Shown: one piece after another, positions 1 through 47,912 of the stretch
Layout: every line of letters begins with the position of its first letter
Position numbering within the stretch: position 1 is the stretch's first letter
Assembly (NCBI GenBank): GCA_023431185.1
Contig: JAEYXS010000065.1
Coordinates: 77,386-141,385, forward strand
Length of the DNA stretch: 64,000 nucleotides
DNA from: Verrucomicrobiota bacterium
GTDB taxonomy: Bacteria > Verrucomicrobiota > Verrucomicrobiia > Limisphaerales > JAEYXS01
Reading direction: 5' to 3'
Program-made: the position numbers and the translations under genes
Notes under the pieces: generated by a model
Databases searched by the model: none
Told to the model about the DNA's origin: nothing
What the model saw: only the letters and a program-made list of their open reading frames with translations

Positions 1-1403
1 TCACGGGCGTGCGACAACGCTGGGATTACTCGGCAGAGGATCCGCATCTGGACATGCGCGGCTTTCGTGTGCTGGAGCTGCGGCAGGATTACGACGAGGC
101 GAACTACACCCGGCAGGATGAGGAACGCGAACTGAGTTTCGAGGAGATCAAGAGTGACCTTGTGTTGCCGAATGGCGCGCGCTTCTACAACGACCACGCG
201 CATCCTGAATACTGCACACCGGAATGCCGCTCCTTTGCTGATATCGTGTTACAAGACCGGGCAGGTGAGCGCATCGTGGAGGCCTGTGCACAAAAGCTTT
301 CTGAGCGGCGTGAGGCAAAGGTGCGGGTGTATAAGAACAATACGGATTTCTGGGGGCATAGTTACGGTTGCCATGAGAATTACCTGCTGCCGCGTTCCTT
401 GGCTTGGGCGACGTTGGCGGAAGGCATGGAGGCGTTTCTCGTCACTCGCCAGATATTTGCCGGTGCGGGGAAGTTCGGCATTGAAGCGGAAGATTCTTTT
501 GAAGGGCCCGGATTTCAGATCGCGCAGCGCAGTGATTTCTTCAGCGAGTTGCAGAGCGTGGACACGATGCAACGGAGGCCTATCATCAATACACGTGATG
601 AACCGCACGCAAATGCACGCTTATATCGCCGTTTCCACGTCATCATCGGTGATGCAAACATGTCGCCCTTTGCCACACGCTTGAAGGTGGGGACAACGGC
701 GTTGGTGTTGGAAGCGCTGGTGCTGGACCCGAAGAAGCGTCATCCCCGGTTGGATGATCCGCTGCTGGCCTTGCCGGTGATCTCGCAGGACTTGAGCTAC
801 AAGTGGGAAGTGAAGTTGCGCGGGAATGAGCCCAGTACGGCTCTGGAAATTCAACGGCATTATCTGGAATGCGTGAAAGCGGTATGCGATCTGAGTTCGC
901 CTGAACGCGTTGAATTGGTAACGGATTGGGAAGCGGCGCTGAACGATCTGGAACAGGATTACCGAAAGTGCCGTGATCGATTGGACTGGGTGGCGAAGCT
1001 GATGCTGGTCCGAGAATTTCAAGCAGCGGAGAATGTGTCTGATGATGATCCGTGGTTGCGGAGCTTGGACTTGGCGTATCACCTGGTGGATGAGGCAGAA
1101 AGCTTGCATGCAGGATTGGAACATGCGGGTGTGATGCGCGGGATGCCGGAGGAGAAGGCGGTGATGGAAGCGGTGAACCTGCCGCCTAAAGACACGCGAG
1201 CATGGATAAGGGGGCGTTGCGTGGCGAAGTTCTCGGAATCCATCATCTCGGCCCAGTGGGATCATGTGACCTTGCAAGGCAGTAAAGGGCGCTTGCGGAT
1301 TTGCCTGCTGGATTTATTCGCGCCGGAGGACATTTTGCGCTATGCTCAATGCATAGAGCGGGCGGTGACGCCTGATGACCTGCAAGCCATTGCGGAAACC
1401 TAG
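1..1403 (+). CDS. dop: Dop-type Pup/UBact deamidase-depupylase, 5' end cut by window edge
   Basis: The frame of ORF 9..1403 stays open to base 1. Pup-ligase/deamidase family motifs are present: HPEYCTPEC, GCHENYL, RRPIINTRDEP, VIIGDANM, KVGTTALVLE. It is paralogous to 3103..4515 but has a longer insert before the PEYCTPEC motif (Dop-loop-like). It lies directly upstream of the Pup-like ORF. Confidence 0.8.
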   Translation, partial: TGVRQRWDYSAEDPHLDMRGFRVLELRQDYDEANYTRQDEERELSFEEIKSDLVLPNGARFYNDHAHPEYCTPECRSFADIVLQDRAGERIVEACAQKLSERREAKVRVYKNNTDFWGHSYGCHENYLLPRSLAWATLAEGMEAFLVTRQIFAGAGKFGIEAEDSFEGPGFQIAQRSDFFSELQSVDTMQRRPIINTRDEPHANARLYRRFHVIIGDANMSPFATRLKVGTTALVLEALVLDPKKRHPRLDDPLLALPVISQDLSYKWEVKLRGNEPSTALEIQRHYLECVKAVCDLSSPERVELVTDWEAALNDLEQDYRKCRDRLDWVAKLMLVREFQAAENVSDDDPWLRSLDLAYHLVDEAESLHAGLEHAGVMRGMPEEKAVMEAVNLPPKDTRAWIRGRCVAKFSESIISAQWDHVTLQGSKGRLRICLLDLFAPEDILRYAQCIERAVTPDDLQAIAET

Positions 1404-1411
1404 CTATCGAT

Positions 1412-1585
1412 ATGCCTGATCAAACCCAGAAACAACGTCCGGCCCCGCCTTCACCCGGCGGTGGTGGTGGCGAGGGACCACGGGAACCCCAGGTGGAGAA
1501 ACCGAACACGGAGGAACTCCTGAAGCGGATGCGCAAGGTCGATCCTGACCAAGCGCGACGCTATCGGCAACGTACCGGCCAATAA
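1412..1585 (+). CDS. UBact/Pup-like prokaryotic ubiquitin-like modifier (57 aa, below ORF-track cutoff)
   Basis: ATG at 1412, TAA at 1583-1585. Translation: MPDQTQKQRPAPPSPGGGGGEGPREPQVEKPNTEELLKRMRKVDPDQARRYRQRTGQ. It occupies the dop-X-prcB slot and has a P/G/Q-rich N-half. The C-terminal RTGQ fits the UBact R-[TS]-G-[EQ] ending. Confidence 0.8.
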   Translation: MPDQTQKQRPAPPSPGGGGGEGPREPQVEKPNTEELLKRMRKVDPDQARRYRQRTGQ

Positions 1586-1589
1586 TAGC

Positions 1590-2363
1590 ATGAACACCGG
1601 GATAGCAGGGGATTTCCTTGGATTGCTCGCGCAGAACAATCTGCGGCCCTTGGCGGCAGAATCTTCCACGCGCGCACCGGAGCAGACGCACGCCACGACG
1701 GTCTTTGCATTCCGCTATCGTGATGGCGTCTTGGTGGCGGGTGACCGGCGGGCGACGGCGGGCAATGTCATCGTGGCGGATGATGTGAACAAGATCATCG
1801 AGATCGACCGCTATTCCTTGCTGGCGATCGCCGGTGTTCCCGCAATGGCGTTCGAGATGGCGCGAGTGATGCAGGTTTCGTTTGCTTACTATCGCCGCAG
1901 CCAGCTTCAGCCCTTGAGCCTCAAGGCCAAAGTGCGGGCCTTGGCGCGATTGCTGCGAGATAACTTGCCGCTGACCTTGCAAGGCGTGGGCGTGGTTGCG
2001 CCGGTCTTTGCGACGGTTGAAGCGCAAGGGGACAAGATGGTGCCGCGCATCTATTTCTACGATCCCTTGGGCGCGCAGTTTGAAGCGGTGGCTTTTGCAG
2101 CATCTGGTTCTGGTTCGGGCACGGTGCGGAGTGTGCTGAGTTATCAGGAAAGGTTTGGTGACGTGAAACCTTCCTCCATGACGCTGAGTCAAGCCATCCG
2201 GTTCGCGCATAATGTGCTAACGGTGGCCTCGGAGTTTGATGCGGCGACGGGTGGTGTGGACCCGCAGCGCACCGTCTGGCCGGTGATCAAGGTGCTGGAT
2301 GCGAATGGAGCGCGGGATGTACAGCCTGCGGAACATGTGGACGCGCGAAAGGAGGAGGTATGA
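1590..2363 (+). CDS. prcB: 20S proteasome beta subunit
   Basis: 257-aa ORF. A propeptide is followed by the ...THA|TTVFAFRYRDGVLVAGDRRATAGN Ntn-hydrolase signature, with the predicted catalytic Thr at residue 36. GSGS motif present. Its stop overlaps the prcA start (ATGA). Confidence 0.9.
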   Translation: MNTGIAGDFLGLLAQNNLRPLAAESSTRAPEQTHATTVFAFRYRDGVLVAGDRRATAGNVIVADDVNKIIEIDRYSLLAIAGVPAMAFEMARVMQVSFAYYRRSQLQPLSLKAKVRALARLLRDNLPLTLQGVGVVAPVFATVEAQGDKMVPRIYFYDPLGAQFEAVAFAASGSGSGTVRSVLSYQERFGDVKPSSMTLSQAIRFAHNVLTVASEFDAATGGVDPQRTVWPVIKVLDANGARDVQPAEHVDARKEEV

Positions 2364-3097
2364 CCGAGGAACCATTTCGCTGGTTGGAGGCGATTGCGAA
2401 TCGCCGGGATTACGTGCAGCAGCAGATCGCGGCAGGTTCACCGGTGTTCGCGGTGAGTCTGGAGTCGGGCATCCTGTTGCTGGGCGTCGGCAGCGGGCAA
2501 TCAAAGGTCTTCGAGATATTTGATCGCCAGGCGATGGCGGCACTCGGGCATCCAGCAGATATTGAACGCGTGCGGCAGATACTCATTGATGCCGCCCATC
2601 TGGAGGCGTTCACGCGCGCGGGTGCGGATGTGAATGTGCGCCGCTTAGTGAGCTTCGGGCTCAGCCCGCAATTGAAGCAGAGCTTCGAGCAGATATTTCA
2701 GGCACCTTTCATGATCAACCTGTTGCTGACGGAAGTGGCCGAGAAGCAAGCTCAAGACGTGCTGGTGCAGGTGCAGTTTGATGGCGGCTTCCAGATCCAG
2801 CATGCGGGCGTGATGGTGGCTTTGCCGAAACCGGAACTGGTGCCAGCCACTGTGGAGTGGTTGCGCAAACACATCGATCCCAAGCTGACACCGGATAAGG
2901 CTACCTTCGTCCTGTTGCAAGCGTGGGATGCTTTGATGCGTAACGAAGCGTTGCCGGAAGCACCGGACTTTTCCGGCGCTTTACCCGCTACCTGCCGTGA
3001 ACGGCTCACCGGCAAAGTTGTGGAAGCGGCGTTGCTGGAGCGGCAGAGCGGCAGCGCGGCGCGGTATGTGCCGTTGATACCTTTTGCGAGCGGCTAA
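2360..3097 (+). CDS. prcA: 20S proteasome alpha subunit
   Basis: 245-aa ORF translationally coupled to prcB. Resembles bacterial PrcA (SKVFEIFDRQAMAALGHPADIERVR region) and has no Thr1 processing motif. Confidence 0.85.
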   Translation: MTEEPFRWLEAIANRRDYVQQQIAAGSPVFAVSLESGILLLGVGSGQSKVFEIFDRQAMAALGHPADIERVRQILIDAAHLEAFTRAGADVNVRRLVSFGLSPQLKQSFEQIFQAPFMINLLLTEVAEKQAQDVLVQVQFDGGFQIQHAGVMVALPKPELVPATVEWLRKHIDPKLTPDKATFVLLQAWDALMRNEALPEAPDFSGALPATCRERLTGKVVEAALLERQSGSAARYVPLIPFASG

Positions 3098-3102
3098 AGT
3101 TT

Positions 3103-4515
3103 ATGAATCGCATCGTCGGCCTGGAGACCGAGTATGGCTGCCTGCTGGATGAAGCGGGCGCGCCAGCGGGATTGATTGGCCGGGTGCGCAACTGGCTCTT
3201 CGAGGGCAACCGTTTCGGCCTGCCGGATCTGCATCAACGCGATTGGGATGAGCCGGCGGGCAATGGCGGGTTTCTCTTCAATGGTGGCCGTGCCTATGTG
3301 GACATGGGGCACTTGGAGTACTGCACCCCCGAGTGTCTGACCGTGCGTGATGTCATCAAATATGATCGCGCAGGTGATGCGATGATCAACCTGGCCTTGC
3401 AGGAGCTGGGTTTCAGTGAGGCGGCCGGGTTTGTGCGGAACAATGTGGACCATTACTCCGGCGCCACCTTCGGCTGCCACGAGAACTATCTGGTCCGGCG
3501 GCATGCACCCCTGACCGAGAAGAACGTCCTGTCGCTGCTGGCATTTCTGACTGTGCGGCTGGTGATGGTGGGCGCGGGCAAGGTCGGTGCTTCGCCCGGA
3601 GTGGAGCAGGGGAATGCGCCGTTCCCCACAGGCAAGGTACCAAAGTTTCAACTCAGCCAGCGCGCGGACTACATCAATAACGATTTGTTCGAGTGGGTGC
3701 AGTTCAACCGAGCCATCATCAATACCCGCGATGAACCACTGGCCGATGGGCGTAAATACCGCCGTTTGCACCTATTGCATGGGGACACCTCTGTGTTGCC
3801 TGCGACCTTGGCGTTGAAGGTAGGCACGACGGCGCTGGTCCTTGATCTTTTGGAAATCGATCATTTGCCGGAGATCGCCTTGGCTGACGCGGTAATGACG
3901 TTTCATCTGCTTTCTCACGACGTTGAGGGACCTTGGCTGGTACAGTTGGCGGATGGGCGGCAGATGGATGCGCTGGAGTTGCTGGATGTTTTCCGCCGCA
4001 AGGCGCAGAGCGAGTTCGGCGGTCGTGATGAGGAGACAGATGGGGTTTTGAAGCTCTGGCAAGGGACCATTGAGCGCCTGTGCAAAAAAAGAGAAGAGTT
4101 GGTGGGCGTGGTGGATTGGGTGACGAAGCGCTGGCTGTTCGAGCAGTTCATGGCAGAGCAGAAACTGGATTGGGATGATCCGTGGCTGAAGTCCTTAGAC
4201 CTTGAGTTTCACCATGTTTCACCGGGCCGCAGCCTGGCTTTGCCTTTGGACAAGACGGAGGCCGGCTGGTCACCTGCTGCCGAAGAAGTGATCGAGGCCA
4301 TGCAAACTGCACCAGACAATACCCGGGCAGGATTGCGGTCCCGGCTGATGCGGGAGCTAAGTCAAAGGAACTTGCGCTACTATGTTGATTGGGAGGTGCT
4401 GGATGCGGCGGGAGCGAAGACTTTGGAGCTTTCGAGTCCATTTGAGGTGAATTCCGAGGCTTCAGCGTTGTGGCTGAAATCGTTGGAAGAGCCGGGGGAC
4501 GCCTTTTCGCCTTAG
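3103..4515 (+). CDS. pafA: PafA-type Pup/UBact-protein ligase
   Basis: 470 aa. N-terminal MNRIVGLETEYG, then HLEYCTPEC, GCHENYL, NRAIINTRDEP, HLLHGDTS. It lacks the extra insert seen in the upstream paralog. Starts 5 nt after prcA. Confidence 0.85.
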   Translation: MNRIVGLETEYGCLLDEAGAPAGLIGRVRNWLFEGNRFGLPDLHQRDWDEPAGNGGFLFNGGRAYVDMGHLEYCTPECLTVRDVIKYDRAGDAMINLALQELGFSEAAGFVRNNVDHYSGATFGCHENYLVRRHAPLTEKNVLSLLAFLTVRLVMVGAGKVGASPGVEQGNAPFPTGKVPKFQLSQRADYINNDLFEWVQFNRAIINTRDEPLADGRKYRRLHLLHGDTSVLPATLALKVGTTALVLDLLEIDHLPEIALADAVMTFHLLSHDVEGPWLVQLADGRQMDALELLDVFRRKAQSEFGGRDEETDGVLKLWQGTIERLCKKREELVGVVDWVTKRWLFEQFMAEQKLDWDDPWLKSLDLEFHHVSPGRSLALPLDKTEAGWSPAAEEVIEAMQTAPDNTRAGLRSRLMRELSQRNLRYYVDWEVLDAAGAKTLELSSPFEVNSEASALWLKSLEEPGDAFSP

Positions 4516-4707: not shown

Positions 4708-4784
4708 GCGCGAGTAGCTCAACTGGATAGAGTGACGGTCTCCGAAGCCGTAGGTTGTGGGTTCAAATCCCGCCTCGCGCACCA
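4708..4784 (+). tRNA. tRNA-Arg (anticodon CCG)
   Basis: Manual cloverleaf fold. Acceptor GCGCGAG/CTCGCGC, D-arm GCTC..GAGT, anticodon stem ACGGT/GCCGT with loop CT-CCG-AA, T-arm GTGGG-TTCAAAT-CCCGC, discriminator A and an encoded CCA. Confidence 0.9.
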
Positions 4785-5274: not shown

Positions 5275-5454
5275 CATGGGGAAATCCCCAATCCCAAGCT
5301 CCGAACACCAGAGAAGCCAATGGCATCGAGGCCCAAAGTCGAGGGGTTTCCCTTGGTGATTTTGAATGTGGGAACATTGCTTGGGGCAGGAGCTTTGCTT
5401 TTCGTCTTTTTTCCTGCTTGTTTCAGCCGTTTCCTCCGCTAGAAATGACGCCTC

Positions 5455-6078
5455 GTGTCGTTGAAACCGAAAGTCAAACTGGGTGTTTTAGGGTCTGGTA
5501 AGGGCTCCAATATGGTGGCCATCGCCGAGGCGTGCGCGGCCGGGAAGCTTAATGCCGAGATCGTCATGGTGGTGAGTGACGTGGAGACGGCGGGCATCTT
5601 GGACCGGGCGAAAGAGCGCGGTTTGCCGGCGAAATTTGTCGCGCCGGGCAAATTCCGCACCAAATTGGACGAGGTGGCAGAGAAGGAATACATCGCGGCG
5701 ATGCAGGCGGCCGGGGTGGAATGGATCGTTTTGGCAGGGTTCATGCGCATCTTGAAGGGTGATTTTCTCCGTGCATTTGAGGGCAAAGTCATCAATATTC
5801 ACCCCTCTTTGTTGCCGTCCTTTCCGGGATTGGAAGCGTGGAAGCAGGCGTTGGACTACGGCGTGAAGTACACGGGCTGCACGGTTCATTTCGTGGATTC
5901 AGGCATTGATACGGGTGCGATCATCGCGCAACGCACGGTACCGGTATTGGATAATGACACGGCGGCGACGTTGCATGAGCGGGTGCAGGTGGCGGAGCGG
6001 GAGCTGTATCCCGAAGCGTTGGGGAGGCTGGTGAATGGGGGCGTCAAGGTGATTGGGCGGAAGACGGTGAGGCTGTGA
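5455..6078 (+). CDS. purN: phosphoribosylglycinamide formyltransferase
   Basis: 207 aa with a GTG start. [29 protein letters not shown] and [15 protein letters not shown] motifs typical of PurN. Confidence 0.9.
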
Positions 6079-6182
6079 TTTGTGGATGGTTTATGGTGGA
6101 TAGTGGATGGGAAGACGGGCAGGCGGGGACGCCTGCGGTACGGCCCGTGAGACGCGTGCGCTACGAATAAGAATTTTTTGAA

Positions 6183-7061
6183 ATGAGCAAACAGGTATTA
6201 AAGTTCGGATTGCCGAAGGGCAGTTTGCAGGACGCCACCATCGAGAAGATGGCGAAGGCGGGTTTTAACATCCAAGTGAGCAGCCGCTCGTACATCCCGT
6301 ATGTGGATGATGTGGAGCTGGACATCCGGTTGATCCGCGCGCAGGAGATCAGCCGTTACGTGGAGCATGGCTATCTGGATTGCGGCATCACGGGGCATGA
6401 CTGGATCAAGGAGAACAACTCTGACGTGCATGAGGTCGGCGAGTTCATTTTCAGCAAGATTTCCCGACAGCCGACGCGCTGGGTGCTCTGCGTGCCGGAG
6501 CAATCGCCGGTGAAGACGGTGAAAGATTTACAGGGCAAACGGATCGCAACGGAAGTGGTGAATCTGACTAAGTCCTATCTCCGCAAGCACAAGGTGAAGG
6601 CGGAAGTGGAGTTTTCTTGGGGTGCCACAGAGGTGAAGGCGCACGAGTTGGTGGACGCGATCGTGGAAGTGACGGAGACGGGGTCTTCGTTGCGCGCCAA
6701 CAAGTTACGCATTGTGGATACGCTTTTGACCTCGACCCCGCGGCTCATCGCGAATCATGATTCGTGGAAGAATAAGTGGAAGAAGCAGAAGATAGAGACG
6801 ATCTCATTGCTGCTCCGGGCGGCCATGGAAGCCGAGACGAAGGTGGGAATGAAGCTCAATATTGCCGAGAAGAACCTCGCAAAATTGTTGCAAAGTTTGC
6901 CCGCTTTGCGTAATCCAACAATTTCCAAGCTGAGTCAGGATGGCTGGGTTGCGGTGGAAACGATCATTGACGAGCACGTTGTTCGCGAATTGATCCCGCA
7001 GTTGAAGGCGGCCGGCGCAGAAGGAATCATAGAGTATCCGCTGAACAAAGTGGTGTACTAA
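6183..7061 (+). CDS. hisG: ATP phosphoribosyltransferase (long form)
   Basis: 292 aa. [11 protein letters not shown]-terminus, DCGITGHDW and [11 protein letters not shown] motifs, plus a C-terminal regulatory domain. Confidence 0.88.
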
Positions 7062-11141: not shown

Positions 11142-13088
11142 ATGTTATTGCGCCAGGTCGCCACTGATTATTCGAAGCACCCATTGCTGCCGGGGGCGGT
11201 GTTGGTCTGCATTTCGGGTGACGGTCAGACACGGCGCTTGAGCCAGTTCACGGCGGATGACCTGGCGGATTACAACAAGTTGACGGTCAAGGAGATCGTC
11301 GCGCACTTGCGCCAGTCCGGAGTGCTGGGGGAAGAGCAGGGGAATGACCTGCTCCAGCTCGATGCGGATTATCGTCAGTGGCACAAGTATGTGCAGGAGC
11401 ATATACCGGAGGTCTGCCGCATCACGGAGTGTCATCAGGAATCGGTGTTGCGGCTGCAACGGGCCCTGTTCAGTGCCAAGCTGCTCGCGGAGTTCTTGGA
11501 AATCCTGACCCCGCCGCAAGTCTCCTTTGAGAAAACATCGCAAGGGACGACTGATCTGCTGGCGAGCCTGAATGAATCCTTTCGCAAGATCGTGGGCGGT
11601 ATCTGGTCGGTGATGGTGGCGGAGGATGACCGTTCGCTGGTGGCGGATGCTTCGGCGCAGTTTTGGGTGGCATGCCTTTATAGCAACGGCCCGCAGAAGA
11701 TGGCCGGTGGTTTCATCGGACTTTTCCAACGGCATAATCGGGAAAGATTCGAAGCGTTGACGGGCCGCATCAATGGTACGGGACCGTTGCGGGTGAAGGA
11801 TGAGGTGTCGGACTTCATGCACCAGACGGCGGAGCGATTGCAGCATTTGCGTGAAGCAGTCAAAGAGACGGTGAAGGCCGGGCTGGATCAACCATTCCGC
11901 GAGATCGCGCGGGTCATCACCAAGCTCGAACTGCCGCCGTTGGTCATCTTGTTCTACGATTCGCTGCTGCGTGAGGTATGTGATGCATTGGCGGGCATTG
12001 ATGGCGATTTTTCGGCGAAGGAGAACCGTTTCGTGCAATACCTGCTGGAGCAGACTTCGGCCATTTGCCACGAAGTGCAACGTCAGGCGGCGGAATCGGC
12101 ACAGGTGGTGGGGCATGACCGGCTGGATGAGATTCTCAAGGAGTTGGATGACTTGGTGGGGCTGGACGTGGTGAAGCAAAAGGTGCGGGAGGTGGCGAAC
12201 TTCGCGCGGCTCCAACAGATGCGCATCGGGCAGGGGATGCCCGCCATCCCGGCCACGTATCACACCGTCTATACCGGCAATCCGGGCACGGGCAAGACCA
12301 CGATGGCACGATTGATGGGCCGCATTTTCCGAGTGCTGGGCGTCTTGAAGAAAAGGCATGTGGTGGAGTGCGATCGCGCAGCGCTGGTGGCAGAGTATGT
12401 GGGGCAGACGGCGCCGCGCACGAATGCCGTGGTGGATTCCGCACTGGATGGCATCCTGTTCATCGATGAGGCGTATACGCTGGCGAAGGAGGGCGAGGAT
12501 TTCGGGCGCGAAGCCATCGATACGCTACTGAAGCGCATGGAGGATAATCGGGACCGGCTCATTGTGATCGTGGCGGGCTATCCGGAAAACATGCGGACGT
12601 TCATTGATTCCAATCCGGGCCTGAGTTCCCGTTTCACCCGCTACATCGAGTTCCCCGATTACACGGTGCCGGAGCTGTGCCGCATCTTCGCCAGTATCTG
12701 TCGCAAGAATGCGCTGCACCTCACGCCGGGCTTGCGGGAGAAGCTGGTGCATCATTTCACCTATCTGCGTGAGCGGGCGGATGAGCAATTCGGCAATGCA
12801 CGGCTGGTGCGAAATTGTTTCGAGGCGGCGATCAATGCCCAGGCGATGCGCCTGGCAGCGAGCGGTGATTTCAGTCCATCGGCTCTGAGTAATCTGTCGG
12901 AAGAAGACCTGAGTTCACCCGCGCAGGAACAGTTGCAGGCGTATCGGGCGGCGGGGAAGTATTACGAGGTGAAGTGTCCGAGTTGTGGCACGGTGTATAC
13001 GTGGTCGCCGGATCTGAAACTGAAGGAGGGCGTCTGCACGAATTGTGGGAAGCAGTACAGTTGTGAGTTTGGCGAGATAGTTAAGTAG
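11142..13088 (+). CDS. AAA+ ATPase of the CbxX/SpoVK type with a ~340-aa uncharacterised N-domain and a C-terminal zinc ribbon
   Basis: 648 aa. Walker A GNPGTGKTT, Walker B ILFIDEAY, RLIVIVAGY and SRF sensor region. C-terminal CPSCG...CTNCG pair. Confidence 0.8.
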   Translation: MLLRQVATDYSKHPLLPGAVLVCISGDGQTRRLSQFTADDLADYNKLTVKEIVAHLRQSGVLGEEQGNDLLQLDADYRQWHKYVQEHIPEVCRITECHQESVLRLQRALFSAKLLAEFLEILTPPQVSFEKTSQGTTDLLASLNESFRKIVGGIWSVMVAEDDRSLVADASAQFWVACLYSNGPQKMAGGFIGLFQRHNRERFEALTGRINGTGPLRVKDEVSDFMHQTAERLQHLREAVKETVKAGLDQPFREIARVITKLELPPLVILFYDSLLREVCDALAGIDGDFSAKENRFVQYLLEQTSAICHEVQRQAAESAQVVGHDRLDEILKELDDLVGLDVVKQKVREVANFARLQQMRIGQGMPAIPATYHTVYTGNPGTGKTTMARLMGRIFRVLGVLKKRHVVECDRAALVAEYVGQTAPRTNAVVDSALDGILFIDEAYTLAKEGEDFGREAIDTLLKRMEDNRDRLIVIVAGYPENMRTFIDSNPGLSSRFTRYIEFPDYTVPELCRIFASICRKNALHLTPGLREKLVHHFTYLRERADEQFGNARLVRNCFEAAINAQAMRLAASGDFSPSALSNLSEEDLSSPAQEQLQAYRAAGKYYEVKCPSCGTVYTWSPDLKLKEGVCTNCGKQYSCEFGEIVK

Positions 13089-44942: not shown

Positions 44943-45566
44943 ATGAAAGATATCGAGTCCATCAGGCAACAGATCGTCGCGAGCGTGCCCGGCGCGCTGG
45001 TGACGCTGGTGCCGAACGACTCGCCGGCGAACCAGCCTTCGTTGCTGGTTGATGCATCTCATGCCATCGCTGTGGCGACTTATTTGCGGGATGGTTCGGA
45101 GTTGCACTTTGATTATTGCTCCAACGCCACTGGCGTGGATTGGCTTGATACGGAGCAGAAGGTGAAGATCAAACAGATGGTGGATGGCGTGGAGAAAGAG
45201 GTCGAGCAGGTCACCAAGAAGCCGGGCTATCTGGAGGCGGTTTATCATCTCTACTCCATCGAGAAGCGGCATGGCCCCTTGGTGATAAGGCTGCGCACGG
45301 TCAATCGTACGGATCAGACGGAGTTGCCTTCGCTCACGCCGGTCTGGCGCAGTTGTGAATTTCAGGAGCGGGAGATCTACGATCTTTACGGCATCATTTT
45401 CACCGGGCATCCAGATCTGCGACGCATCCTCATGTGGGATGGCTTCAAGGATTTTCCGATGCGCAAGGATTACGTTGAGCCGGATGACTACGAGTATGAG
45501 CCGACGCCGCACGATGAGGTGCTGGAGAAGGCGAAGGCGCACTATCAAACGGGGGTGAAACCATGA
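44943..45566 (+). CDS. nuoC: complex I subunit C
   Basis: 207 aa. [27 protein letters not shown] signature. Confidence 0.9.
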
Positions 45567-46741
45567 ACACGGAGATCATGGCCGAGCCGCCGAAGAATTA
45601 TGAAGTGCATCCGAAGGAGCCGGGGCACTTCGATGGAGATGTGGGCGATCTGCTCGAGGTCTCCATGGGGCCGCATCACCCGTCCACGCATGGTGTCTTC
45701 CGCATGGATGTGGTGCTGGATGGCGAGCGCGTGGTGAAGCTCAAGCCGGTCTTCGGTTACCTGCATCGGAATCATGAGAAGATCGGGGAAGGGGCCAGCT
45801 ACCTCGCCTCGATGCCTTACACGGACCGGCTCGATTACTTTTGCTCGATGACGAACAACTGGGCTTACGCCTTGTCCGTCGAGAAGCTGGCCGGTTTGCA
45901 AGTGCCAGAGCGGGCGGAATATATCCGTGTCATCACGGCCGAATTGACGCGCCTGGTGAATCACACCTGTCTCATGGGGTTCCTCGTGCAGGACATGGGT
46001 GCACTGGGGACGCCGCTCATGTATGCCTTCCGTGAGCGGGAGAAGATCCTGGATCTGTTCGAATCACTGAGTGGTGCGCGCATGATGTGCAATTACATGC
46101 GCTTCGGTGGCTGCCGTTGCGATTTGCCTGCTGGCTGGCTGGAGCAAGCGCAGCAAGTGGTGGATGAGTATCCGCGTTTTCTGGATGAATACGAACATCT
46201 GCTCATGGGTAATGAAATCCTCATGGCGCGCAGCCAGAACGTGGGTGTGTTACCGAAGGCGTTGGCCATCAGTGCAGGCATCACTGGCCCGATGTTGCGT
46301 GCGAGCGGAGTGAACTATGACATCCGCAAAGTGGATAAATACGGTATCTATGACCGTTTCACGTTCCGCGTGCCATTGGGTGAGCATGGCGATGTCTATG
46401 ACCGCTTGATGGTGCGTTTGCTAGAGATGCGTGAATCGGTCGGCATTTTGCAACAAGCGTTGAAGGCGATCCCCGAGGGGCCGATCGTGGATCCGAAGGC
46501 CAAATTGCGCGGGTTCAAGCCCAAGGCGGGCGAGGCGTATGGCCGCATCGAAGCGCCAAAAGGGGAGTTGGGTTTCTATCTCATCAGTGATGGCACGCCG
46601 AATCCGTATCGTTATCGGGTGCGTCCACCGAGCTTCGTGAATTTGACGGTGCTGGAAGACATGTGTCTCGGTCATTCCGTGGCGGATGTGGTGATCATCT
46701 TGGGCAGTGTGGATATTGTGCTTGGCGAGGTGGATCGATAA
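45563..46741 (+). CDS. nuoD: complex I subunit D
   Basis: 392 aa. [19 protein letters not shown], and a C-terminal DIVLGEVDR. Confidence 0.92.
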
Positions 46742-46744
46742 GTT

Positions 46745-47269
46745 ATGCACTGGAGACTGAAACAGACCAATTTGCTCGATGAACCAGCAGACGTCCTCGT
46801 CTGTTCGGCGAACGTCAGTCTTAATCTGTCTGGCGGGGTAGGGGCGGAATTGCTGGGGCGTTATGGTGACCGGATGCAGAAAAGTTTGCATGCGATCTTG
46901 CACCAACGCAGCCCACGGGCGGCGAAGTGCGGTGAAGTGTTCGCTTATTCAGGTAAGGAGATGCCTTATAAAGCGGTGCTTCATGCCATGGCGATCGACG
47001 GCTGGTATCAGAGCAGTCCGCAGATCATCACCGACATCACCCGCAAAGCGCTGAAGATGGCGGCGGAATTTGAGGCAAGGAAAGTGGCTTTCACGGTCTT
47101 GGCCACAGGTTTTGGCAACCTTTCCCTGGCTGATTTTGCGCAAGGTGTGCGACCGATCTTGAATGATGAATTTCCTCCTGTTGAGGAAGTGATTTTTGGC
47201 TTGCTGCTGGATTTTCAAGTGGCGGAACTGGCTAAACATTTTCCAGAATTAGAAACTTGTAGCGTTTAA
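46745..47269 (+). CDS. macro domain (ADP-ribose-binding/processing) protein embedded in the nuo operon
   Basis: 174 aa. N-x6-GGV motif (NVSLNLSGGVG) and G-x-[YF]-G motif (TGFG). Lies 3 nt after the nuoD stop and 7 nt before the nuoI ATG. Confidence 0.7.
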   Translation: MHWRLKQTNLLDEPADVLVCSANVSLNLSGGVGAELLGRYGDRMQKSLHAILHQRSPRAAKCGEVFAYSGKEMPYKAVLHAMAIDGWYQSSPQIITDITRKALKMAAEFEARKVAFTVLATGFGNLSLADFAQGVRPILNDEFPPVEEVIFGLLLDFQVAELAKHFPELETCSV

Positions 47270-47276
47270 AGAACAA

Positions 47277-47912
47277 ATGCTCGGCGAAGGCATACTGAAA
47301 GGCATGGTGGAAACGGCGAGAAATTTCGCCGGGAGCTACGTGTCCAAAGATCGCCTGACGACGGTCGAGTATCCCGAGCAACGCATCGCCCCGAAAGAGA
47401 ATGCGCGGCAGTTCCCGTTTCTGGTGTTCGACGGTAATGATCCACAAGCGGGCTTGCGTTGTGTGGCGTGCCAGATCTGCGAGAAGGAGTGCCCGCCCAA
47501 GTGCATCTACATCGAGAAGAGCAAAGACAAGAAGCCGGACTTCGTGGGCAAGCCGCAGATTTATCCGGCTACGTTTGATATCGATATCTCCGTCTGCATG
47601 AGCTGCCAGATCTGCGTGGAGGTCTGTCCGTTTGATGCCATCAAGATGGACCAGGCGTATGAACTCTCGAATGATGACCGGTTCGGAGGGTTGCTCTTGC
47701 GCAAGATCGATTTGGCGAAACCAAACGACTATTTTCGCAAGCTGCATCCGAAGGATGCAGCCGAGATCGATGCAGCCAGGGTGACGGCCAAGGAACAGGC
47801 CGAAGCCAAGGCGAAGGCAGATGCGGAGGCGAAGGCCAAAGCAGCGGCGGAAGCAAAAGCGAAAGCGGCAGCACCACCAGTGCCACCAGCGGCTCCGCCC
47901 ACGGGCGCATAA
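47277..47912 (+). CDS. nuoI: complex I subunit I (2x[4Fe-4S]) with an Ala/Lys/Glu- and Pro-rich C-terminal tail
   Basis: CVACQICEKECP and CMSCQICVEVCP ferredoxin motifs. Tail sequence AKEQAEAKAKADAEAKAKAAAEAKAKAAAPPVPPAAPPTGA. Confidence 0.9.
   Translation: MLGEGILKGMVETARNFAGSYVSKDRLTTVEYPEQRIAPKENARQFPFLVFDGNDPQAGLRCVACQICEKECPPKCIYIEKSKDKKPDFVGKPQIYPATFDIDISVCMSCQICVEVCPFDAIKMDQAYELSNDDRFGGLLLRKIDLAKPNDYFRKLHPKDAAEIDAARVTAKEQAEAKAKADAEAKAKAAAEAKAKAAAPPVPPAAPPTGA

Follow-up and report, generated by a model that had tools for sequence, protein, structure and literature searches.

The closest described relatives of the locus considered here are the Pup system of Actinobacteria, which reportedly goes back to Pearce and colleagues in 2008, and the UBact family, said to have been named by Lehmann, Udasin, Livneh and Ciechanover in 2017 (BBRC 483:946). 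In mycobacteria, the ATPase Mpa docks on the 20S core through a GQYL motif with a penultimate tyrosine. Verrucomicrobial peptides ending in G[EQ] had already been counted as Pup orthologues (Iyer, Burroughs and Aravind, 2008; PMC2588565), and the Pup mechanism, as set out in earlier work (PMC7947786, PMC2588565, PMC3511204), serves here as the model for UBact. In Pup systems, a terminal Gln is deamidated by Dop (PMC7947786, PMC3511204). The positions that discriminate Dop from its paralogue PafA were taken from Hecht et al. (2020, Table 1; PMC7947786): in a Dop, a Dop-loop of about 40 residues is present and the catalytic Asp is followed by D-H-A without any inserted residue, whereas a PafA has no Dop-loop, shows L-D-V-G-S with a one-residue insertion, together with A-T-A, a PafA-type alpha-helix region and Asp439 (C. 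glutamicum numbering).

The stretch of DNA that we analysed, hereafter the window, is 64 kb long and opens inside a proteasome gene cluster (Table 1). A short open reading frame in this cluster is very probably one cistron of a dop-UBact-prcB-prcA-pafA operon, the gene of UBact, a Pup-like protein modifier known from Verrucomicrobiota and further Gram-negative phyla. It lies in the 186-bp gap (1404-1589) that separates the TAG stop of the Dop-like gene (1401-1403) from the prcB start codon, runs from an ATG at 1412 to a TAA at 1583-1585, and translates as MPDQTQKQRPAPPSPGGGGGEGPREPQVEKPNTEELLKRMRKVDPDQARRYRQRTGQ. The coordinates, the 57 codons, the translation and the size of the gap given in a preliminary description of this DNA all agree with the sequence, and so does the gene order proposed there, dop-X-prcB-prcA, with a Dop-like upstream paralogue, to which pafA can now be added as the next gene. 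That description had also called the frame unlisted. This holds for the ORF track, since the default minimum of the ORF lister is 60 amino acids and the product has 57, but it does not hold for public records, where a gene for the identical peptide has been called and entered in GenBank (MCD6050587.1) as 'hypothetical protein K0Q55_1990 [Verrucomicrobia bacterium]'. An ORF minimum of about 60 amino acids thus hides a functionally central gene of a bacterial proteasome operon, which can be recovered from the raw sequence.

Table 1. Genes of the proteasome cluster at the left end of the window.
Feature	Coordinates	Strand	Description	Evidence
dop	1..1403	+	Dop-type deamidase/depupylase homologue (5' end beyond window edge, frame from base 3)	
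UBact	1412..1585	+	57-aa ubiquitin-like modifier, tail ...YRQRTGQ	PF20513 and NF033388 matches
prcB	1590..2363	+	20S proteasome beta subunit, 35-residue propeptide	
prcA	2360..3097	+	divergent 20S proteasome alpha subunit (4-nt overlap with prcB stop)	
pafA-like	3103..4515	+	presumed UBact ligase	

The five genes are separated by 8, 4, -4 and 5 nt, and internal promoter or terminator motifs did not exceed shuffled expectation within the cluster; this tight spacing and the absence of a motif excess therefore indicate a single operon.

The family to which the peptide belongs was clearly identified by curated models. It scored 81.1 bits with the Pfam UBact model PF20513 (cutoff 27.8) and 82.1 bits with NF033388, the 'ubiquitin-like protein UBact' equivalog of NCBIfam (cutoff 35), and in each case the alignment extended to the final profile position and the last residue of the peptide. 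By contrast, the Pfam and NCBIfam models of Pup gave no match at E<=1, and the comparison of a UBact alignment with M. tuberculosis Pup by hhalign was not significant (E 0.012, probability 3.7%), so that Pup proper was rejected as the family, in agreement with the earlier assignment to UBact and not to Pup. The same hhalign comparison nevertheless placed the two tails in register, RRYRQRTGQ of UBact facing RAYVQKGGQ of Pup.

A word-indexed search returned 986 homologues, and the best 120 of these 986 all end in YRQRTG[QE], with Gln as last residue in 103 and Glu in 17. When 1.84 billion cluster representatives (50% identity) were searched exhaustively with a profile, 170 matched at E<=0.001, and an R-x-G-[QE] C-terminus was found in 122 of the best 150 of these 170 representatives. 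All but two of these 122 termini, which are singletons, read R-[T/S]-G-[Q/E] (RTGQ 65, RTGE 30, RSGE 15 and RSGQ 10), while the last residue is Gln in 75 and Glu in 47. The other 28 of the 150 have the appearance of faulty gene calls, whether frameshifted, read through or fragmentary. Across 80 species loci, 67 peptides end in Gln and 13 in Glu, and the Gln of the window copy is thus the majority state of the family. The preliminary description had read the YRQRTGQ ending as the R-[T/S]-G-[E/Q] terminus of UBact, distinct from the GGQ/GGE of Pup, and this reading is borne out by 120 of the best 150 representatives; the conservation that it anticipated for the frame and for the terminal G-[QE] was likewise observed in orthologous dop-prcB gaps.

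In a scan restricted to one genome per species, relatives were found in 440 genomes, nearly all of them labelled Verrucomicrobiota; the labels include metagenome-assembled genomes of Pedosphaera/Limisphaerales and Methylacidiphilales. The host of the window fits this distribution: the identical peptide and its close relatives are labelled Verrucomicrobia or Verrucomicrobiota, and the window carries PSCyt, PSD1 and DUF1501 genes, which are typical of the PVC group. NCBI already labels members of the same 90% cluster 'ubiquitin-like protein UBact'. The window peptide is therefore an ordinary member of a named family with curated models, already known, and shares with that family the end-to-end profile match, the length of 57 amino acids, the R-T-G-Q end, a Gly/Pro-rich and predicted disordered N-terminal half, the Dop-UBact-PrcB-PrcA-PafA neighbourhood and the verrucomicrobial host, with no difference of substance. 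Some records of metagenome-assembled genomes with verrucomicrobial UBact operons (L008, L014, L017, L028 and L086) are titled Chitinophaga pinensis, Klebsiella sp., Klebsiella pneumoniae or Akkermansia muciniphila; these titles are probably taxonomic mislabels of the submitted assemblies.

Coding status was evaluated independently of the profiles, by comparing codon positions among seven DNA copies, namely the window ORF and six orthologues that encode the same peptide, from genomes whose operon region shares 77-88% DNA identity with the window. Variable sites were 44 in number and were distributed 0/1/43 over the three codon positions, the lone change outside the third position falling at the second base of the stop codon (TAA/TGA); no amino-acid change was seen. 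In the same genomes, protein identity was 100% for UBact, 86-94% for Dop, 91-97% for PrcB, 79-95% for PrcA and 84-96% for PafA; UBact surpassed every other gene of the operon in conservation at each level of divergence compared, larger distances included. Peptides identical to MPDQTQKQRPAPPSPGGGGGEGPREPQVEKPNTEELLKRMRKVDPDQARRYRQRTGQ are encoded on 14 public contigs. The ORF is thus a genuine coding gene on which purifying selection acts very strongly, and its start codon is correct, since M1 and P2 are conserved family-wide.

These data leave very little room for readings that deny the gene. A frame of only 57 codons, with no obvious Shine-Dalgarno sequence ahead of its ATG, in a 57% GC window where shadow ORFs of like size are numerous, could in principle have opened by chance if the dop-prcB spacer were non-coding, the genome being moderately GC-rich. 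The codon-position pattern, with 43 of 44 variable sites silent at third positions despite the divergence of the genomes, and profile scores two to three times the curated cutoffs, with relatives in several hundred species genomes, rule this reading out, and we regard it as having practically no chance of being right. A 268-aa antisense frame (1404-2210, -), with which the UBact ORF and prcB both overlap, is hardly more credible; it would be taken as the real gene if length were the guide, being the longest mechanical ORF of the interval. It has no Pfam match, while UBact and a protein of the Proteasome family (91 bits) are encoded on the plus strand, and the substitutions fit the plus frame; it is accordingly treated as a shadow frame.

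The UBact peptide was modelled with AlphaFold2 on an alignment of 26 sequences. Confidence was low for residues 1-32 (pLDDT about 46-55 over residues 1-30) and high for two helices, 33-43 and 45-55 (pLDDT 81-92), which are followed by the terminal Gly-Gln. The model thus predicts a disordered, Pro/Gly-rich N-terminal half, as the preliminary description had presumed, together with a helical C-terminal half made of two helices and an exposed Thr-Gly-Gln end. This matches the two-helix-plus-tail architecture predicted for Pup (PMC2588565). With Pup (PF05639) the peptide indeed shares its small size, the disorder of its N-half, the two helices of its C-half and the G-[Q/E] end, as well as the presence nearby of Dop/PafA paralogues, of an Mpa/ARC ATPase and of PrcAB, and the position of the tag between dop and prcB. 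The differences concern sequence and charge. The window peptide ends in T-G-Q where Pup has G-G-Q, Thr or Ser occupying position -3 throughout the UBact family, and significant profile similarity links it to UBact and not to Pup. Moreover, UBact is basic, with a pI of 10.1 and 8 Lys+Arg versus 4 Asp+Glu in its C-terminal helices, whereas M. tuberculosis Pup is strongly acidic, with a pI of about 4.05. This inversion of net charge implies opposite electrostatics in the recognition of UBact by the ATPase and by the ligase, compared with Pup; recognition by Mpa and PafA therefore cannot be identical in the two systems.

The two carboxylate-amine-ligase paralogues, between which UBact lies, differ in how closely they resemble their actinobacterial counterparts. 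The dop product scored 472.7 bits with the Pfam Pup_ligase model and was closer to Dop than to PafA among NCBIfam models (TIGR03688, 423.5 bits; TIGR03686, 332.9 bits), remaining under the TIGR03688 equivalog cutoff of 492.3, a shortfall due in part to the missing 5' end of the window copy. Comparison with PDB structures gave the same order, with 318-337 bits for Dop (318.5 for 4b0r/5lrt) and 214-221 bits for PafA (214.5 for 4b0t). Its Dop-loop aligns with that of A. cellulolyticus Dop, the RWDY...RGF motif being conserved, the segment NDHAHPEYCTPE is present, and N-D-H-A-H-P-E-Y-C-T-P occurs with no insertion, the pattern of a Dop; the motifs NDHAHPEY, GCHENY and NTRDEP were all found. By these features the upstream paralogue is Dop-like, its Dop-loop and DHA signature being intact.

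The downstream paralogue is less easily classified. It matched Pup_ligase over its full length (368.3 bits), and its best full-length PDB match was a PafA (4b0t, 218.8 bits), ahead of Dop structures (194-206 bits), but the NCBIfam scores were nearly equal (Dop 270.5, PafA 263.8), with an equivalog cutoff of 551.3 for PafA (TIGR03686). As in PafA, there is no Dop-loop and the PafA-specific Asp is present (VDW at 428), along with LETEYG, GCHENY and NTRDEP. As in Dop, the active-site segment DMGHLEY lacks the one-residue (Val) insertion that PafA shows after the catalytic Asp and is thus of Dop length, and C-T-P is found in place of A-T-A; the alpha-loop is unlike that of either enzyme. The ExE, HENY and NTRDEP motifs are kept in both paralogues. 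The PafA-like protein is a mosaic at the positions that discriminate Dop from PafA, and departs from actinobacterial PafA at several of them.

As regards the proteolytic core, PrcB scored 91.1 bits with the Pfam Proteasome model and 169 bits with TIGR03690 (20S_bact_beta), below the equivalog cutoff of the latter. Its Thr1 is residue 36, Asp17 and Lys33 are in register, and the catalytic triad is intact. PrcA matched weakly, staying under the cutoffs of both models (20.8 bits for Pfam Proteasome, cutoff 22.4; 52.8 bits for TIGR03691 20S_bact_alpha, cutoff 139), and the position of prcA is conserved in at least 31 loci.

The gene order was then considered in orthologous loci. Those that encode the identical peptide read WYL-Mpa-Dop-UBact-PrcB-PrcA-PafA, and an Mpa/ARC-type AAA ATPase gene was present upstream of dop in six of them. 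This ATPase, of 571 amino acids with proteasomal-ATPase OB domains, is encoded directly upstream of dop; in the window it falls beyond the left edge and is known from these orthologous loci. The orthologous Mpa at 6572-8287 of L004 ends in ...RQAMGYAGKII, with no GQYL ending. A WYL/WCX regulator with PafBC-like domains lies directly 5' of the Mpa gene wherever the flank suffices (L001-L004, about 5400-6500). Between Mpa and Dop, L001 and L002 also have an ORF of 98 amino acids that matches no Pfam family.

On a wider scale, the full Dop-UBact-PrcB-PrcA-PafA order was found in 31 of the 80 species loci, and a shortened version, with the later genes undetected, in another 24. In about 20 of the 80, UBact-prcB-prcA-pafA stands without a dop in the 6 kb upstream, and the peptide ends in Gln in nearly all of these (for example L018, L035, L037, L039, L043-L049, L051, L052, L057, L073 and L079, with UBact at about 6001); in L039, part of a complete chromosome of 6.0 Mb (OY969763.1), the genes upstream of UBact run in the opposite direction. 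Some 13 further loci read dop-UBact-prcB and so on and lack pafA within 6 kb. A neighbouring Dop is thus not universal among UBact loci. No correlation appeared between the terminal Gln or Glu and an adjoining Dop in the 80 species loci: loci whose UBact ends in Glu mostly keep an adjoining Dop (11 of 13), and some 20 Gln-type loci have none, so that adjacency of Dop neither proves nor disproves deamidation.

From a mechanistic standpoint, the analogy with pupylation suggests the following sequence of events. Dop would deamidate the C-terminal Gln57 of UBact to Glu, a requirement that the preliminary description had drawn from the terminal Gln. The PafA-like enzyme would then phosphorylate the gamma-carboxylate of Glu57 with ATP, giving a gamma-glutamyl phosphate, and would join UBact to lysines of target proteins by an isopeptide bond. 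The tag would be recognised by the Mpa/ARC-type AAA ATPase, which would unfold the substrate and feed it to the PrcAB proteasome, and Dop may also remove the tag. The restriction of the last position of UBact to Gln or Glu fits Gln as a masked Glu. A full-text literature search found no experimental study of UBact conjugation, the term occurring only in reviews and reference lists, and the proposed tagging chemistry therefore rests on enzyme homology. The departures of the PafA-like protein from actinobacterial PafA, the basic character of UBact, an Mpa without GQYL and the dop-less loci all speak against a strictly Pup-like model.

As an alternative, UBact could be a real and conserved protein that acts non-covalently, for example as an adaptor or regulator of Mpa or of the proteasome, or as an assembly factor. 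The outcome of the literature search, the charge opposite to that of Pup and the genomes that lack dop or pafA in the 6 kb around UBact would all be compatible with such a role. We nevertheless consider it improbable, given that Gln or Glu follows an invariant Gly in 122 of 150 representatives, most exceptions looking like faulty calls: ligation through a gamma-carboxylate requires this constraint, whereas nothing would oblige a non-covalent binder to maintain it, and most loci pair UBact with Dop-type and PafA-type enzymes that retain their catalytic motifs. A different departure from the Pup scheme would keep conjugation and shift the first step, the PafA-like enzyme deamidating or activating UBact-Gln itself and Dop only removing the tag. 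The mosaic protein, with its Dop-length DMGHLEY and Dop-like CTP, lends itself to this idea, and an engineered Dop/PafA hybrid was interpreted as using Pup-Gln directly and ligating Pup (PMC7947786); direct activation would also explain why about 20 related species have UBact(Q)-prcB-prcA-pafA loci with no dop within 6 kb. Against it, the Dop that adjoins UBact in the window keeps both its Dop-loop and its DHA signature intact, UBacts ending in Glu mostly keep their adjoining Dop, as in Pup systems, and the Dop of dop-less loci may be encoded elsewhere in the genome. Such direct use of UBact-Gln by the PafA-like enzyme is, in our estimation, quite unlikely, and there is an equally slim chance that the verrucomicrobial PafA-like protein is a natural Dop/PafA intermediate that might activate UBact-Gln directly, making Dop dispensable for tagging. 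Deamidation by Dop followed by ligation by the PafA-like enzyme remains the preferred reading.

Beyond the correct annotation of a UBact gene, the significance of these results is small. The locus, with its intact Dop, PafA-like protein and PrcAB and a tag identical across several species, is a reasonable source of proteins for reconstitution in vitro, an opportunity that is general to the UBact family and not peculiar to the window.

Several other features of the window were recorded. A tRNA-Arg(CCG) gene at 4708-4784 (+), directly 3' of pafA, is the sole Rfam/ARAGORN match in the 64 kb. An ATPase of 648 amino acids with AAA and AAA_lid_6 domains is encoded at 11142-13088 (+), 6.6 kb downstream of the proteasome operon. 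Between 38.5 and 43.8 kb lie unremarkable genes of LysR, cyclase, RidA-like and glyoxalase type. A Macro-domain ORF of 174 amino acids (46745-47269, +; 51 bits) sits inside a complex I operon, with nuoD (45563-46741) on one side and the gene of a NuoI-like 4Fe-4S subunit (47277-47912) on the other.
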